From: Alphaproteobacteria bacterium
GTDB lineage: Bacteria > Pseudomonadota > Alphaproteobacteria > Sphingomonadales > Sphingomonadaceae
Assembly: GCA_030424845.1 (NCBI GenBank)
Contig: JAUHWC010000003.1
Coordinates: 193,034 to 257,033, forward strand
Reading direction: 5' to 3'
DNA length: 64,000 nt
The first letter of the stretch is position 1. Every line of letters begins with the position of its first letter. Below the pieces are notes generated by a model. That model was given only the letters and a program-made list of their open reading frames with translations. It had not been told where the DNA came from and searched no databases. A program made the translations under genes and the position numbers. This document shows, in pieces, positions 36,727 through 41,817 of the stretch.

Positions 36727-37908
36727 ATGACACTGCCATTCGGCAAAACCGCACTCCTTGCAGGGGCTGCGGCCCTGCTTGCGCCGGTGTGCGTTTCCGC
36801 ACAGGATTACCGGGACCTGACAGCCGAAAGCAGCGATGTGCTGATCTTCGAGGGCGAAGTGAGCGAGGCGCCGGTGGTCTTCCGCTATACCATGGCCCCT
36901 TCCACCTCGTTGCAGATCGACGTGATCCCCACCGAAGAAAGCGAGCTGGATCCCATCCTGACCGTAACCGATGTTGCCACCGGAGAGGTGCTGGCGGAAG
37001 ACGATGACGGGGGTGGCGGGCTGGCTTCGCGCGCACGCATCTACGCCGAGGAAGGGCGTGAGGTGGAGATCACCGTTTCTGCCTATGCGTTCTTTTCCGG
37101 CGAGGAGAGCTCCGGACCGTTCGAGCTGGTCCTGCGGCCCGGTACGAACGAACCGCAAGACCTGACGGCGGTAGAGTTCGGCGGTGTCAGCGAGGGTGAC
37201 CTCGGTCCCGGCGGCGTCCATCTCTACACCCTGTCCGGACAGGAGGGCGAGATGCTGCAAGTGGCGATGATCGCCGGCAGCGACGATCTCGATCCCTTGC
37301 TCACGCTTTACCGGGGCGAGGGGACCAACGGCGAGGAACTGGCCAGCGATGACGACGGCGGCGATGGCCTCAATTCGCTGCTGCGTTTCGTCCTGCCGGA
37401 AACGGGCAGCTATACGATCGCCGCCCAGGCCTATGGCGGCAGCGCCGGCGATTACACCTTGCGCGTGGCCCCGCAGCGCAGCCACACGATCCAGTCCCCG
37501 CAGCAGGTGATCTCGCTGGATGAACGCGTATCCGGCTATCTTGGAACGGGTTATGAAAACGGCGGCCTCGATCCCTCCGAAATCACCTATCAGCTGACGC
37601 CGGAGGCGATTGCGGCGATCCGCGAGGGGCGCGGCGAAGTGACCATCAACATGACCACGCCGCTGTTCGAGGATGAATATTTCCCGAGCTCCATCGATGC
37701 CTTTGTCGAACTGGGGTTCGAAACCCCGCTGGGCTTTGCCGGCATGCTGAGCGACGATGATGGCGGCGACGGGCTGAACGCGCGGCTGGTGATCGACCTG
37801 TCACCCATCGCCAACGACGGGGACTGGCTGGAGCGCCTGCGCATCCGGGCCACGTCGATCGGCAATGCCGGGGCATTCGAGATCGAGCTTGTCGAGGGAG
37901 GACAATAG
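36727..37908 (+). CDS. Secreted protein with three pre-peptidase C-terminal (PPC)-like repeats
   Basis: Signal peptide, then three roughly 100-aa units. Each unit has DP(I/L)LT(V/L)... then (S)DDDGG(D/G)GL, and ends with a Y/F-x-(L/I)-x-(L/V) strand. Confidence 0.6.
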   Translation: MTLPFGKTALLAGAAALLAPVCVSAQDYRDLTAESSDVLIFEGEVSEAPVVFRYTMAPSTSLQIDVIPTEESELDPILTVTDVATGEVLAEDDDGGGGLASRARIYAEEGREVEITVSAYAFFSGEESSGPFELVLRPGTNEPQDLTAVEFGGVSEGDLGPGGVHLYTLSGQEGEMLQVAMIAGSDDLDPLLTLYRGEGTNGEELASDDDGGDGLNSLLRFVLPETGSYTIAAQAYGGSAGDYTLRVAPQRSHTIQSPQQVISLDERVSGYLGTGYENGGLDPSEITYQLTPEAIAAIREGRGEVTINMTTPLFEDEYFPSSIDAFVELGFETPLGFAGMLSDDDGGDGLNARLVIDLSPIANDGDWLERLRIRATSIGNAGAFEIELVEGGQ

Positions 37909-37947
37909 GCGCCTTGCCCAAGCTGCCTTGACGATGCAGATGAAAGA

Positions 37948-37980
37948 ACCCCCCGGAGCCCGCTCCGGGGGTCTTTGTCT
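37948..37980. terminator. Bidirectional intrinsic terminator between convergent genes
   Basis: GAAAGA-ACCCCCCGGAG-CCCG-CTCCGGGGGT-CTTTGTCT. It is A-rich upstream and T-rich downstream. Confidence 0.75.
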
Positions 37981-38026
37981 GGAGTGCTGTCAGCCCAGGG
38001 CCGCCAGCTGTCCTTCGTGACGGGGA

Positions 38027-39289
38027 TCAGCCGTCGGCCTCTTCCTCGTCATCGGCTGGCGGGGGCGGGCCGAAGCCCGGGCGCGGGCCGGTGCCGGGGT
38101 CATGGTCGAAGGGCTGGGCGAAACGGCTGCGGTCGTCATTCTCGGCCGTGACAGGATCTTCCTCGCCAGCGGCGATGCGGGCCTGCTGCGCACGCGAAGC
38201 GCTGATGTAGTCGCGCGGCATGTAGTTGCCTTCATGGCAGGCGTATTCGAAGAAGGTGTAGTCCTCGTCACGCGTCCATTCGATGCGCGTCGTCCACGGC
38301 TGGGTATAGACCTGCGGGTCGGAATAGGTCAGCTCGTGCACGATGGCATCGTCGCTGGTCATCGTCAGGCGTTCCACCGTCATGGCTTCGGTGCTCATCG
38401 GGACAGTATTGAAGGCGGGAACCTCCAGCGTGCCGGTGAACTGCGTTGCCATGTTGAGCGGCGAGGCCGAGCGCTTGTAGACATCCTCGGTCGCGCTGTC
38501 GCCCGAGACGATGTTGGTCGTCTCGATCACCAGCGTGTTGCCTTCCCACCAGCCGCGCGAATTACCCATCCATGCCTCCACGCTCTCGTCCCACTTGGCG
38601 GCCTGGGCTTCTTCCTTGCTGTCATAGATCTTGACCACGCGCGTGCCGAGCATCTCGAGCACGATCGTCATGTAGCCCGGGCTCTGGAACACGCGGATGC
38701 CGTTGTTGTAGCGGAAAGGGTACATGGAAGCAGGGAAACCGCGCGAAACGCAGCGGTCCCAGCTGTCGAAGTCGTCCACCCAGTCATAGGCCTGGCCGGG
38801 CACCCAGCCCGAACGGCCGGCCTGGAACAGGGCCATGGCTTCCGGCGTCAGGTCCGGCAGCTGGCCGTCAGCCGGGGAAACCAGCATGGAGGTGCGCTTG
38901 CCGAAATCATGCGTCAGGAACCACGCCTCAAGGCCGGAGGTGCCGCTGGCGCCGATGCCGCTTTCATTGGCCTGGGTGAAATTGCCGTCCTGCTGGCGAG
39001 CGGCGGCAAGGCGGCGCTCGAATTCCTCGTCAGTCACCCAGAAGCGATCGCCGTAATGGGCAGGGCGCTGGAACAGGATACGGCCGTTGTTGATCGGCTC
39101 GATCGGCCATGTGCCGGTGAAATCGGGATCGCCCCAGGGCAGGCGGGCCGGCTCGTAATCGGTCGGCACGGGCGGCAGGTAGGACAGGTCGTCAGGACGC
39201 TCCTGCGCGGCGGTGGTGCCGGCGGTGATGGCGATGGACGCAACACCTGCGGCAATGGCAAACTTCTTCAAGAGACCTTTGCGGGTCAT
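38027..39289 (-). CDS. Conserved hypothetical secreted protein
   Basis: 420 aa with a signal peptide. The Trp-rich blocks (GWWEGNTLVIETTN, YTQPWTT, FEYACHEGNY) look like a family I cannot name. Acidic/Pro-rich tail. Confidence 0.6.
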   Translation of the reverse strand: MTRKGLLKKFAIAAGVASIAITAGTTAAQERPDDLSYLPPVPTDYEPARLPWGDPDFTGTWPIEPINNGRILFQRPAHYGDRFWVTDEEFERRLAAARQQDGNFTQANESGIGASGTSGLEAWFLTHDFGKRTSMLVSPADGQLPDLTPEAMALFQAGRSGWVPGQAYDWVDDFDSWDRCVSRGFPASMYPFRYNNGIRVFQSPGYMTIVLEMLGTRVVKIYDSKEEAQAAKWDESVEAWMGNSRGWWEGNTLVIETTNIVSGDSATEDVYKRSASPLNMATQFTGTLEVPAFNTVPMSTEAMTVERLTMTSDDAIVHELTYSDPQVYTQPWTTRIEWTRDEDYTFFEYACHEGNYMPRDYISASRAQQARIAAGEEDPVTAENDDRSRFAQPFDHDPGTGPRPGFGPPPPADDEEEADG

Positions 39290-39410
39290 AGATCGGGCTC
39301 CCTTCCCAATGTGACTTTGCCCGTGTCGTTAAGGCAGTTTCCGGCGTGATGCCAGAGCCGAGGTTGATTCAGTCTGTAATATTTTGTCGTCGCCGCACCT
39401 CCCATCGATC

Positions 39411-39462
39411 AACGAAAAGGGGCCGTCAGGAGGCGCATCCCTTGCACCCGCCTGACGGCCCC
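39411..39462 (-). terminator. Intrinsic terminator ending the low-GC cassette
   Basis: Minus strand: GGGGCCGTCAGG-(20-nt loop)-CCTGACGGCCCC followed by TTTTCGTT. It lies 31 nt after the stop of mini-ORF B. Confidence 0.8.
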
Positions 39463-39492
39463 GTGACGTAACTCGTGATCGATGAGCGAGGT

Positions 39493-39579
39493 TTAGTCCT
39501 GCGCGCCCTGATCGTTAGCGCGTTTCCCGGCTTCGTCCCGCAAGCGTTCAGTAAAGTCTTTCGCCACTTGTCCAGGCAT
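39493..39579 (-). CDS. Mini-ORF B, 28 aa (MPGQVAKDFTERLRDEAGKRANDQGAQD)
   Basis: ATG 39579 has AAGGAG 7 nt upstream. It shares MPG-x8-RLRDE, in the same register, with mini-ORF A. A terminator follows. It is below the ORF-track cut-off. Confidence 0.55.
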   Translation of the reverse strand: MPGQVAKDFTERLRDEAGKRANDQGAQD

Positions 39580-39655
39580 TCTCTTTCTCCTTCTCGCAGT
39601 AAACGGGTGGAACCTCCCACCGAAAGCTATCCAGCCGGTCCAGGGTTATGCCAAT

Positions 39656-39766
39656 TCAGCCCTTCGGGGGTTCTGTCTCCCGAGATGGTTTGGCCGCTGC
39701 TTCCATGCGGCTTCGCATCTCGTCCCTAAGGCGAGCCTGGATCGAATGTTTCCTCATTCCCGGCAT
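39656..39766 (-). CDS. Mini-ORF A, 36 aa (MPGMRKHSIQARLRDEMRSRMEAAAKPSRETEPPKG)
   Basis: ATG 39766 lies 2 nt after the TGA of the upstream gene, with GGAG 7 nt upstream. It is a paralog of mini-ORF B. Confidence 0.55.
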   Translation of the reverse strand: MPGMRKHSIQARLRDEMRSRMEAAAKPSRETEPPKG

Positions 39767-39768
39767 AA

Positions 39769-40167
39769 TCAGTCTCCACTGAAGAGTTGATCGAAGAACT
39801 CCCGTTCAATATCAGATTCCGGCGCGTTTTCAAAACCTTTCATGCACTCGTAACTCTTGGCCATCGTCGACGGGAAGAAGCGATCCGGCCCGTGCTTGCA
39901 TTGGTAAGGCTTGTATTTGCGGATCGAACAGAGACCGGCGTCATCAAGGAAGACGCAGCGCCCATCGTTATCCTTGATGTGGTAGACATCCTGCCCGGCG
40001 ATGTCGCTCAACTCGGCATTGCGTTCGAAGTAAGCCTGCTCGATCCAGGCAAGGTCGCGGTCCTGCCTGTCCGCAATCCGCTGGCGGTCAGCCTTCAAGG
40101 CGATCACGATATCCCTGCGGCCAAGGTTGGTGCAGCACAGGCCGCACTGGGTGCACTCGAACTTCAC
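39769..40167 (-). CDS. YkgJ-family cysteine-cluster protein (CxxCxxCC, putative Zn/Fe-chelating domain)
   Basis: The N-terminus MKFECTQCGLCC matches the CxxCxxCC signature. Further Cys residues are at DGRCVF, GLCSI, YQCK and YECM. The GTG start is preceded by GGAGGTG. Confidence 0.75.
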   Translation of the reverse strand: MKFECTQCGLCCTNLGRRDIVIALKADRQRIADRQDRDLAWIEQAYFERNAELSDIAGQDVYHIKDNDGRCVFLDDAGLCSIRKYKPYQCKHGPDRFFPSTMAKSYECMKGFENAPESDIEREFFDQLFSGD

Positions 40168-40171
40168 CGGT

Positions 40172-40975
40172 TCACACCTCCACCTTTTCGAAACGGTAAT
40201 GCACCCAGTATCGCTCCCCCACCTTCGGTCGCTTGATGACCAGTGTCACCATGCTGCCATCCGGCGATACATTGGGCTCCACCGACCGTCCGCTATCGAT
40301 CTCGGCAAGGGTTTGCGAATCCCGCACGCTGAAACGCGGCTCGATCAGCACGAACTTGTAGCCGAAGGGGGCATAGGCGAAGACCGTCGCCCTGCGACAC
40401 GTGACATTGAGCCCGAAGCCGAAGTTTGTCCCGCGCGCCTCGAAGGCCTCCATCTCGGTCCCCGGCGTGATGATCTCGGCAATGTAGGAAATCTCTTCCT
40501 TGGGAGCGAGGCTGGGGTTGATCCTGGGCTGCCACATGTAGCGGTAGTTCTGGTCGTCCCCCGGCATGCGCTGCATGTTGATGGGGTCGATCTGCGGTGC
40601 CTTGTCGCCGCTACTTATCCGTCGGTCCTTGAAGCGGCCGCGTTGGTAGAGGCGGTAAATGATGCTGTCCTGCGGGATCGGCGCGTACCACAGGAGGTTT
40701 TCCTCGGGCAGGACAGCCGACTGGTGCCAGCCATTGACCAGGTCAAAGCGGTTGCGGGTGATGACCGTGCCGTCTTCGAGATAGAAATAGTGATATTCCG
40801 CCGACTTGTAGAACGGATCGTAGGAAACGGCGTTGTAGATCTTTGCCAGGACACGCAACGCCAGGATGCCGGCTGCCAGGAGGAAAATCAGCAGCAGATA
40901 TGCCGCGTCCTTAAGGCCGATCGTTGCTGACAGCAGCTTGATCGTCCGCTCGTCATCGATAAACAGCGCGATCAC
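40172..40975 (-). CDS. Hypothetical membrane-anchored protein (N-terminal TM, about 220-aa aromatic-rich soluble domain)
   Basis: 267 aa from GTG 40975. TM helix AAYLLLIFLLAAGILALRVLA. No family recognised. The same frame continues upstream through one TAA (41009-41011) to ATG 41038 (see findings). Confidence 0.6.
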   Translation of the reverse strand: MIALFIDDERTIKLLSATIGLKDAAYLLLIFLLAAGILALRVLAKIYNAVSYDPFYKSAEYHYFYLEDGTVITRNRFDLVNGWHQSAVLPEENLLWYAPIPQDSIIYRLYQRGRFKDRRISSGDKAPQIDPINMQRMPGDDQNYRYMWQPRINPSLAPKEEISYIAEIITPGTEMEAFEARGTNFGFGLNVTCRRATVFAYAPFGYKFVLIEPRFSVRDSQTLAEIDSGRSVEPNVSPDGSMVTLVIKRPKVGERYWVHYRFEKVEV

Positions 40976-41175
40976 GGGCCCAAGCAGGATCGCGGCGATA
41001 CCCAGCGCTTAAAGGATCGATATCTTCATCCTGGGCATATCGAAACTCGCAAATTACAAGGGCCTGCCTGATGGGACACTTGTCCAGCTTGTCGGGTGGG
41101 AAGTCAAATCCGTTGCCACTTGTCCGGTTAGAACCGGGTTGCAGGGCAGGGCGATCGTTGCGTCCCGCTTCCCCC

Positions 41176-41204
41176 TTGACCCACCCCATCCACCCCGCTA
41201 AAGG
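41176..41204 (+). promoter_or_regulatory. Candidate sigma-70 promoter of the str operon (TTGACC-N17-TAAAGG)
   Basis: Hand-read -35/-10 spacing. It would give a leader of about 235 nt before rpsL. Confidence 0.35.
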
Positions 41205-41445
41205 CGCGCGGTCCCGGACGGGGGCTTGCCCCTTGTCCGACATATAGAGCTGAACATTGCCGGTGAGGTCTTCTGCGAAAGGCTGCCGTCAAAGTAACCG
41301 GTGCCTTAAGGCACCAGGTGGAGCGTTTCAGGCTCGCGCGAATTGTCGCCAGGCCCACTCCCAGCGGTGCGGCCCCGCTTTCGCGCGATCCCGATACATT
41401 CCATCTGGTTCCGACGGCACCTCATAACCAAGGTGAAGTCACTTA

Positions 41446-41817
41446 ATGCCTACTATCAACCAGCTTGTCCGCAAGCCGCGCCAGCCGATCGTCAAGAAGA
41501 GCAAGTCCGCGGCCATGCAGGCCAACCCGCAGAAGCGCGGCGTCTGCACCCGCGTCTACACGACCACGCCGAAGAAGCCGAACTCGGCACTTCGCAAGGT
41601 TGCCAAGATCCGCCTGACCAACAGCCGTGAAGTCATCGCCTACATCCCGGGCGAAGGCCACAACCTGCAGGAGCACTCCGTGGTGCTGATCCGCGGCGGC
41701 CGTGTGCGCGACCTTCCCGGTGTGCGCTACCACGTGCTGCGCGGCGTTCTGGACACGCAGGGCGTGAAGGATCGCAGGCAGTCCCGCTCGAAGTACGGCG
41801 CCAAGCGTCCGAAGTAA
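41446..41817 (+). CDS. rpsL: 30S ribosomal protein S12
   Basis: [12 protein letters not shown]...[12 protein letters not shown]... Confidence 0.98.

Follow-up and report, generated by a model that had tools for sequence, protein, structure and literature searches.

In several signaling-based bacterial defense systems, a single regulatory C-terminal domain is combined with alternative N-terminal killing modules. This is the layout of the cyclic-oligonucleotide-based antiphage signaling system (CBASS), with its CapV patatin, its two-transmembrane Cap15 and Cap14 proteins and its PN-superfamily effectors, and also that of the transmembrane and TIR effectors of Pycsar and Thoeris. Another arrangement, in which a latent effector accompanies a protease fused to a sensor, has been shown to be antiviral in a 2025 preprint (bioRxiv 10.1101/2025.11.14.688446). 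In this work, we describe a minus-strand cassette (39411–41038) found in a 64,000-nucleotide stretch of alphaproteobacterial DNA (assembly GCA_030424845.1, contig JAUHWC010000003.1, positions 193,034 to 257,033; the window, from now on) and composed of a gene for a membrane protein (gene 1), a gene for a CxxCxxCC cysteine-cluster protein (gene 2) and a micropeptide gene (gene 3). These three genes form a conserved, translationally coupled and horizontally mobile unit, and our reading, held with moderate confidence, is that the cassette represents an undescribed three-gene conflict module of the defense or abortive-infection type.

Gene 1 and its relatives reproduce the first of these layouts, since the two-transmembrane form likewise carries a receiver domain, here predicted to be cytoplasmic, and the enzymatic modules found in other members match the CBASS effector models themselves. 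However, no CD-NTase (CBASS-type nucleotidyltransferase), nor any other nucleotidyltransferase, cyclase or TIR signal generator, was present among the called neighbors of any locus, and gene 1 contains no recognized nucleotide-sensing domain. Furthermore, the receiver is predicted to be a new β-sandwich, different from SAVED, STING, the Cap15-type β-barrel, CARF or macro domains, and it is accompanied by a CxxCxxCC protein and a micropeptide. The general architecture, in which one receiver domain combines with exchangeable effectors, belongs to a known kind; the novelty lies in the receiver itself, the cysteine-cluster partner and the obligatory micropeptide.

Indeed, neither the module nor the domain of gene 1 was found in Pfam, NCBIfam, PHROGs, PADLOC v2, the PDB or the searchable literature, in agreement with an earlier reading of the window made from its sequence alone (the sequence-only reading), which had been unable to match the architecture to any described system. 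In PADLOC-DB v2.0.0, the four open reading frames (ORFs) of the window gave no matches at E ≤1, and the distant two-transmembrane members and their CxxCxxCC partners gave none at E ≤0.01. Literature searches on CxxCxxCC proteins (YkgJ, PF03692, UPF0153), on cysteine clusters and iron-chelating domains in antiphage defense and on effector-domain combinations returned nothing describing the module.

Distribution of the Module

The association of these genes is not restricted to the window. A word-indexed search of 5.8 billion clusters returned 14 proteins related to gene 1, to which a broad profile of 135 sequences, used in the same kind of search, added at least four; four loci came from 185,579 species genomes and one from the JGI metagenomes. 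No relative was detected in IMG/VR, and tblastn with three members (P0001, P0058 and P0024) gave no matches in phage and plasmid collections. In each of 15 distinct loci (the window, L024, L005, L006/L012, L008, L011, L013, L014/L021, L015, L017, L016, L019, L020, L022 and the P0135 locus), the gene 1 relative is directly followed by a CxxCxxCC (PF03692) gene, and in every one of the 14 loci that extend past gene 2, a small ORF starts within a few nucleotides of the gene 2 stop codon (2–4 nt) or overlaps it. The sequence-only reading had proposed the co-occurrence of the two larger genes and the presence of conserved small ORFs after them as checks on its view of the cassette, and both were borne out. 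The closer clade comprises loci from Thalassospira profundimaris, a Parvibaculum metagenome-assembled genome (MAG), Lysobacteraceae and Porticoccaceae MAGs, a gammaproteobacterial MAG and several metagenome contigs.

Gene 1 and Its Interchangeable Effectors

According to hydropathy and structure prediction, gene 1 encodes two N-terminal transmembrane helices followed by a new β-sandwich domain of about 210 residues, predicted to be cytoplasmic. Hydropathy peaks at residues 7–25 and 46–64, and the AlphaFold2 model, built on a 14-sequence alignment (pLDDT 84, pTM 0.74), places helices at residues 8–26, 29–39 and 42–71 and an all-β domain at residues 76–285. When the positive-inside rule was applied to the Lys and Arg residues of the two-transmembrane relatives, 73 of 79 were assigned an N-in/C-in topology, and a cytoplasmic β domain would be compatible with a cytoplasmic cysteine-cluster partner. 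Searches of the PDB with sequences and profiles gave nothing meaningful for gene 1, for gene 2 or for a fourth gene present in locus L011 (see below). Foldseek comparison of the gene 1 model with the PDB reached TM-scores of at most 0.41, the matches being 3kd4 (the N-domain of a Parabacteroides “putative protease”), the ribophorin of OST and the N-domain of M1 aminopeptidases, and comparison with BFVD likewise gave low-scoring matches only. No function was taken from these matches.

The nature of the module became clearer from the wider family of gene 1. A search of 1.84 billion representative proteins with the gene 1 profile yielded 125 clusters, and about 103 of the 116 full-length members bear one or two hydrophobic, putatively transmembrane, N-terminal segments. 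Ten members have another N-terminus instead, namely PNP_UDP_1, CHAT, Trypsin_2 (four members), α/β-hydrolase (two), DUF4062 (TIR-like) and Patatin. These swapped domains matched the PADLOC models for the CBASS phospholipase (E = 2e-65) and the CBASS PN-superfamily effector (E = 2e-18), the chat and SAVED_CHAT models, and those for the Retron-XI and LmuA proteases (E about 1e-15). Judged from these matches, they are domains known from CBASS, Lamassu, retron and protease-effector defense modules, and exchanges of this sort characterize effectors of immunity or conflict, in contrast to clusters for peptide natural products.

The neighborhoods of several of these variants point in the same direction. 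In locus L020, the CHAT fusion is immediately preceded by a Trypco2/Pepco gene, and AbiEi_3 is also close by; in L019, an LCAT-like α/β-hydrolase gene immediately precedes the trypsin fusion. L020 and L019 have exactly the layout of the protease-effector modules described in the preprint (Pepco/Trypco, and α/β-hydrolase zymogens that a sensor-fused protease of the trypsin or caspase-like type switches on), which would place the β domain of gene 1 in the position of the sensor or receiver. The window cassette differs from such modules in having neither a protease nor a separate latent effector, the effector being the two-transmembrane segment itself; moreover, the sensors named in the accessible text do not include the β domain, the CxxCxxCC protein or the micropeptide, and the terms CxxCxxCC and YkgJ do not appear in it. 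Other loci show further defense-related genes: L022 is accompanied by two TIR_2 genes, a CAP12-PCTIR_TIR gene (a PADLOC TIR effector, E = 9e-25) and a patatin gene, and L006 is surrounded by AbiEii, methyltransferase, NERD and Fic genes.

As a separate observation, three of the CHAT and trypsin fusions (P0095, P0100 and P0109; L020:543-1907 and L019:2167-3588) start with hydrophobic N-termini resembling signal peptides or lipoprotein signals, which are absent from their CxxCxxCC partners.

The Cysteine-Cluster Protein

Gene 2 (39769–40167, minus strand; 132 aa from a GTG start) had been recognized from its CxxCxxCC motif as a YkgJ-type protein, and it passes the Pfam gathering score for PF03692 (E = 4.1e-8; 34.2 bits against a cut-off of 23; residues 4–96), the family also recorded for the partner genes in other loci. 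Eight cysteines (C5, C8, C11, C12, C71, C80, C90 and C108) are invariant in a 12-sequence alignment. A word-indexed homolog search with gene 2 retrieved only itself, so the protein appears to belong to a very divergent PF03692 subfamily, and the partner family was assembled from the neighborhoods of gene 1 relatives. A single-sequence AlphaFold model (pLDDT 37.6) was unusable. To our knowledge, YkgJ/PF03692 is a large family with almost no assigned functions.

Among the described CxxCxxCC proteins is the flagellin lysine N-methylase FliB, a [4Fe-4S]- and S-adenosylmethionine (SAM)-dependent enzyme with eight conserved cysteines, whose CX4CX3CC motif binds an oxygen-sensitive [4Fe-4S] cluster (PMC8598068). 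Gene 2 shares with it the PF03692 domain and the number of conserved cysteines and, because the related motif of FliB binds [4Fe-4S], gene 2 is likely, by analogy, to possess a putative site for Fe-S or Zn. However, the 132 residues of gene 2 contrast with the 373 positions of the FliB model NF038110, to which only residues 47–83 align, with 19.9 bits against a cut-off of 85, and the gene never adjoins flagellin genes. The link to FliB drawn by the sequence-only reading thus stands at the level of the domain, and fails for FliB proper.

The Micropeptide Gene

The small ORFs that follow gene 2 share a Pro-rich N-terminus with the consensus MPSGPAI..., which begins as MPG... in the window, where it occurs twice. 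Mini-ORF A (39656–39766, minus strand; 36 aa, MPGMRKHSIQARLRDE...) is the local copy of gene 3 and mini-ORF B (39493–39579, minus strand; 28 aa, MPGQVAKDFTERLRDE...) is a diverged second copy; two copies are found only in the lineage of the window, and L024 and all other loci have one. The micropeptide of L024, the closest relative (64% identity in gene 1), reads MPGYRSSLLKSRIEAE...; MPGYRSSLLKSRIEAERANR..., and the small ORFs of the closer clade read MPSGPASVILKKIKEQRKAK; MPSGPAITLANKIQSL...; MPSGPAINMGIAIENE...; MPSGPAIAMKNKIVLA...; MPSAPVDNIGMAIDNE...; MPAAPPQIVVEIAKKA...; and MPAAPMDGMLEIAAS.... Those of the wider family comprise MGREPQPILGKIREF..., MNPNEKTKVLIPETRK..., MSVPGPNVALEVQRK... 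and MGPPIPKNRQNISKIK..., together with a 61-aa ORF at the patatin locus. The 13 micropeptides compared range from 20 to 59 aa, are hydrophilic, have variable tails and, in 12 cases, lack cysteine; they matched no family in Pfam or NCBIfam.

A further observation concerns the way in which these ORFs have diverged. Within the MPSGPA group, 22 of the 28 nucleotide differences in codons 2–7 affect the third codon position, and the codon differences are 21 synonymous versus 3 nonsynonymous. Because the differences are mostly third-position and synonymous, selection acts on the peptide and not on the RNA, with the micropeptide N-terminus under purifying selection. On this comparative evidence, the mini-ORFs are real genes that deserve annotation. 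Gene callers sometimes miss this conserved product of 20–60 aa, and at the Thalassospira locus (L005) no gene had been called for it. An explanation of the mini-ORF region as a small RNA or riboswitch was dropped, since an Rfam scan of 39200–41500 matched no family. Similarly, a likeness of the Pro-2 peptides to 4-oxalocrotonate tautomerases was rejected, because lengths of 20–59 aa leave no common fold-sized core.

One locus departs from the general pattern. In a Porticoccaceae MAG (L013:4140-5652), gene 1 is split into two ORFs of 192 and 117 aa, and gene 2 runs in frame into the micropeptide to give a 197-aa ORF (...YEENDMPAAPMDG...). The locus may be decaying, mis-assembled or a natural fusion and, since gene 1 is split in the same MAG contig, the gene 2–peptide fusion was discounted as “Rosetta-stone” evidence. 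In two other loci, a fourth gene follows the micropeptide gene (L008:7456-8061 and L011:8148-8813) that is absent from the window. The two products are 34% identical over 193 aa (E = 6e-42), share the motif HLDDIPG...WHGR and, judged from it, resemble a 2-His-1-carboxylate oxygenase; neither matched Pfam or the PDB.

A short ribosomal peptide gene beside a putative metalloenzyme is reminiscent of the clusters that make ribosomally synthesized and post-translationally modified peptides (RiPPs), and the sequence-only reading had raised the possibility that gene 2 modifies the co-encoded peptides. In a RiPP-like cluster, the cysteine-cluster protein (Fe-S, possibly SAM-dependent) would modify the micropeptide or micropeptides, and the membrane protein would export, anchor or mature the product. 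The invariable position of the small ORF directly after the CxxCxxCC gene, its conserved N-terminus and variable tail, its duplication in the window (as precursor genes often are), the methylase activity of FliB with its related cysteine motif, and the HxD...H motif of the fourth gene of L008 and L011, which could denote an oxygenase, are all in keeping with this idea. Nevertheless, gene 2 is small and scores far below the FliB cut-off, and neither Pfam nor NCBIfam reveals in the core module a known RiPP enzyme class, a leader-recognition element or domain, a protease or an ABC exporter. In addition, the peptides, hydrophilic and nearly all devoid of cysteine, show a conserved N-terminus instead of a leader/core layout, and none has a conserved core. 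Finally, an exporter would have no reason to exchange its transmembrane region for a patatin, PNP, TIR-like or trypsin domain, a pattern that fits conflict systems. The proposal that gene 2 modifies the peptides found no supporting evidence, and we consider a RiPP-like cluster improbable.

The Operon in the Window and Its Nonsense Allele

The four minus-strand ORFs described in the sequence-only reading are all present, and direct inspection of the sequence confirmed the three coupling junctions attributed to them. Gene 1 ends 4 nt ahead of the start of gene 2, with GGAGGTG placed 7 nt before the GTG of the latter; the TGA of gene 2 is separated by 2 nt from the ATG of mini-ORF A, which has GGAG 7 nt upstream; and mini-ORF B is preceded, at the same distance of 7 nt, by an AAGGAG of its own. 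The unit closes with an intrinsic terminator (39411–39462, minus strand), formed by a hairpin at 39419–39462, with an outer stem of 12 bp and an inner stem of 7 bp, followed by UUUUCGUU at 39411–39418. This terminator with its T run, which had also been claimed, is real: the hairpin was also found as an inverted repeat, and the 76-nt fold has a dG of -46 kcal/mol (z = -6.4), a stability that none of 200 shuffled sequences attained. A consensus terminator scan missed it because its loop is long. The four ORFs thus constitute a real, coupled operon.

On the other side, a divergent intergenic region of 407 bp (41039–41445) separates gene 1 from rpsL, whose start is at 41446 in the ORF list. Both promoters are expected inside this region, and a promoter scan of it returned no sigma-70-like site. 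The same region contains a terminator-like hairpin on the minus strand (41298–41317) and, just upstream of rpsL, an inverted repeat with 33-nt arms, 79% complementary, and a 37-nt spacer (41310–41412), neither of them with an Rfam match.

The notion of gene 1 as a native gene of 267 aa had to be revised. The 267-aa ORF starts at a GTG (40172–40975, minus strand) that has no obvious Shine–Dalgarno sequence, while its homologs measure 283–288 aa and share a hydrophobic N-terminus absent from it. The full-length frame, defined by its translation and by the length of the homologs, starts instead at an ATG at 41038 and comprises 288 codons plus the stop (40172–41038, minus strand), but it reads MPRMKISIL*ALGIAAILLGPV..., with a TAA at codon 10 (41009–41011). 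The stop is due to a single-nucleotide polymorphism at position 41011, which is A in the window (TAA) and C in L001 (GAA, Glu), a contig from another sample that is 99.9% identical to the window over 6.9 kb; in agreement, P0001, a protein 99% identical, reads ...SILEALG... at this site. The intact GAA allele is also that of SRR33375173. The same stop as in the window is present in a third sample (L003, ERR3428542), whose sequence shows 100% identity to it. The gene annotated here as encoding 267 aa is, in consequence, a nonsense allele of a 288-codon effector gene. A product restarted at the GTG would keep the second transmembrane helix and the β domain and lack most of the first helix. With its effector gene interrupted so early, at codon 10, the window copy is probably attenuated or inactive.

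Natural loss-of-function alleles of this kind, in a compact, coupled and mobile unit that encodes a probably toxic membrane protein and a tiny, hydrophilic, co-translated product, bring to mind toxin–antitoxin systems. Gene 1 could encode a toxin of the membrane, and the labile micropeptide, alone or together with gene 2, could serve as its antidote in a selfish addiction or stress module without an immune role that would persist by post-segregational killing or respond to redox or iron stress. The small coupled genes, the patchy and mobile distribution, the AT-shifted composition, the toxic-looking repertoire of effectors and the VapB/RHH antitoxin gene near the patatin-type locus would agree with it, as would the segregation of an inactivating nonsense allele among 99.9%-identical strains, which is common for toxins. 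However, the core consists of three genes, with an obligatory cysteine-cluster protein, the effector gene in first place, no DNA-binding antitoxin domain and peptides that match no family, a layout unlike that of type II or other known toxin–antitoxin types. The module was not found on the plasmids or phages searched, and the fact that the protease fusions have Pepco/Trypco2 and α/β-hydrolase partners is indicative of regulated signaling of an immune type. The boundary with abortive infection is blurred, so this alternative overlaps with the explanation that we favor; as a distinct, non-immune system we regard it as unlikely, although it is the most plausible of the rivals considered.

Base Composition and Horizontal Origin

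Horizontal acquisition had been suggested by the sequence-only reading on the basis of four manual G+C counts (26, 31, 36 and 49 per 60 nt), all of them exact on recount, and of a perceived frequency of A/T-ending codons. The cassette is indeed about 5 points lower in G+C than the window (58.2% vs 63.0%, with a standard deviation of 1.8 for windows of the same length) and falls within the lowest-G+C stretch of the 64 kb. However, the G+C content at third codon positions (0.80 in gene 1 and 0.74 in gene 2, compared with 0.76–0.87 in neighboring host genes) is host-like, so that A/T-ending codons are not frequent overall. The deficit lies in codon positions 1 and 2 and in intergenic DNA, and the mild AT shift of the window copy comes mostly from amino-acid composition and intergenic DNA.

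The conclusion itself is sustained by other observations: the patchy distribution of the module across Alpha- and Gammaproteobacteria, the unrelated flanking genes, which differ from locus to locus, and the fact that the G+C content of the cassette is below that of its flanks in 8 of the 9 other loci compared, by 3.5 to 14 points, as it also is, by about 5 points, in the window. Examples are 41% vs 54% in Thalassospira, 47% vs 62% in the Lysobacteraceae MAG and about 44% vs about 60% in L024, the window copy being the least AT-shifted of those compared.

In L024, the 44% G+C cassette borders on what is left of an M3 peptidase gene, a C-terminal fragment of 107 aa (60% G+C; L024:1834-2332). The cassette therefore seems to have been inserted within or next to a host gene that was disrupted; in this locus, the micropeptide ORF continues into the flanking DNA. 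In the window, the search for flanking direct repeats yielded only a chance-level pair, an imperfect repeat of 24 nt (79% identity) between 39550–39573, inside mini-ORF B, and 41102–41125, upstream of gene 1. Chance alone would produce about one exact 11-mer seed in the region, and the pair was not interpreted as an insertion scar; no such scars were identified.

Genomic Surroundings

The host is a member of the Erythrobacteraceae, as its S7 protein shares clusters, at an identity of at least 90%, with proteins of Parerythrobacter, Erythrobacter and Aurantiacibacter; the cassette is located beside the str operon of its chromosome. On the other side of the cassette (36727–39289), the window encodes a protein of 420 aa without a Pfam match, whose N-terminus is hydrophobic and resembles a signal peptide, and a 393-aa PPC-domain/DVUA0089-family protein. 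Both are near-unique, in clusters of two members each, so that the variable stretch bordering the str operon may extend beyond the cassette.

In three loci, a gene for an ABC1/UbiB-type kinase lies directly downstream of the module: L005:7413-8792 in Thalassospira, L021:11718-13100 in a Parvibaculum-like contig and L017:2084-2386, the last being a distant variant whose gene 1 reaches no better than E = 8e-27 against the profile. This adjacency could reflect a shared insertion hotspot or a functional link.

Surroundings such as these bear on the possibility that the module is an accessory housekeeping complex, in which a membrane-tethered β-sandwich and its Fe-S or Zn partner would serve envelope, redox or metal homeostasis or lipid and quinone metabolism, and the small ORF would encode a factor for their assembly. 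It would be favored by the housekeeping neighbors of the two-transmembrane clade, by the ABC1/UbiB genes of L005, L021 and L017 and by the resemblance, at TM-scores of at most 0.41, of the modeled fold to ribophorin and to the peptide-binding N-domain of M1 aminopeptidases. Against this stand the extreme rarity and patchiness of the module, its AT-shifted composition, the domain swaps to phospholipase, nucleosidase, TIR-like and protease modules that match defense effectors and the defense genes near several relatives. Of all the explanations considered, this one seems to us the least probable.

A Model for the Module

The observations described above could be integrated in a model in which the β-sandwich domain acts as a receiver that controls the N-terminal effector. 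The cysteine-cluster protein and the micropeptide, made in a fixed ratio and probably bound together, would constitute the sensing and control unit and would keep the effector silent until an infection-linked cue appears, for which the candidates are a phage protein, a shutdown of host translation that depletes the short-lived peptide, or damage to the metal cluster. In the two-transmembrane form, activation would lead to oligomerization, permeabilization of the inner membrane and, eventually, cell death or arrest.

Several points weigh against this interpretation. The β domain, gene 2 and the peptide have no known defense homolog in PADLOC, and the roles given here to the latter two are pure inference. 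In the two-transmembrane clade, to which the window copy belongs, the neighbors are housekeeping genes (malate synthase, LysR, phytochrome, pntAB, rpsL), and the module does not lie in defense islands; the evidence from defense neighbors, for its part, comes from a handful of loci. The copy in the window has a nonsense codon in its effector gene. Lastly, the signal-like N-termini of P0095, P0100 and P0109 would place the β domain outside the cytoplasm, away from gene 2, in conflict with the topology deduced for the two-transmembrane members.

A bolder version of the model would see in the module a new class of immune signaling, with a ribosomally made micropeptide as the signal or the license. 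Upon infection, an Fe-S cysteine-cluster protein would bind or chemically alter the Pro-rich MPSGP... N-terminus, and the β-sandwich receiver would recognize the peptide or complex so formed and switch on the effector fused to it (pore, phospholipase, nucleosidase, TIR-like or protease). It would be a peptide-based analog of the cyclic-nucleotide signaling of CBASS, and we give it only a slim chance, comparable to that of a RiPP-like cluster.

If the interpretation as a defense or conflict module is right, bacteria would possess a system of this type built from three parts without a described immune role, in which a new receiver domain drives at least seven kinds of effector. The PF03692 family would then gain a second biological context besides that of FliB, and the peptide encoded by gene 3 would offer a tractable case of a functional bacterial micropeptide.

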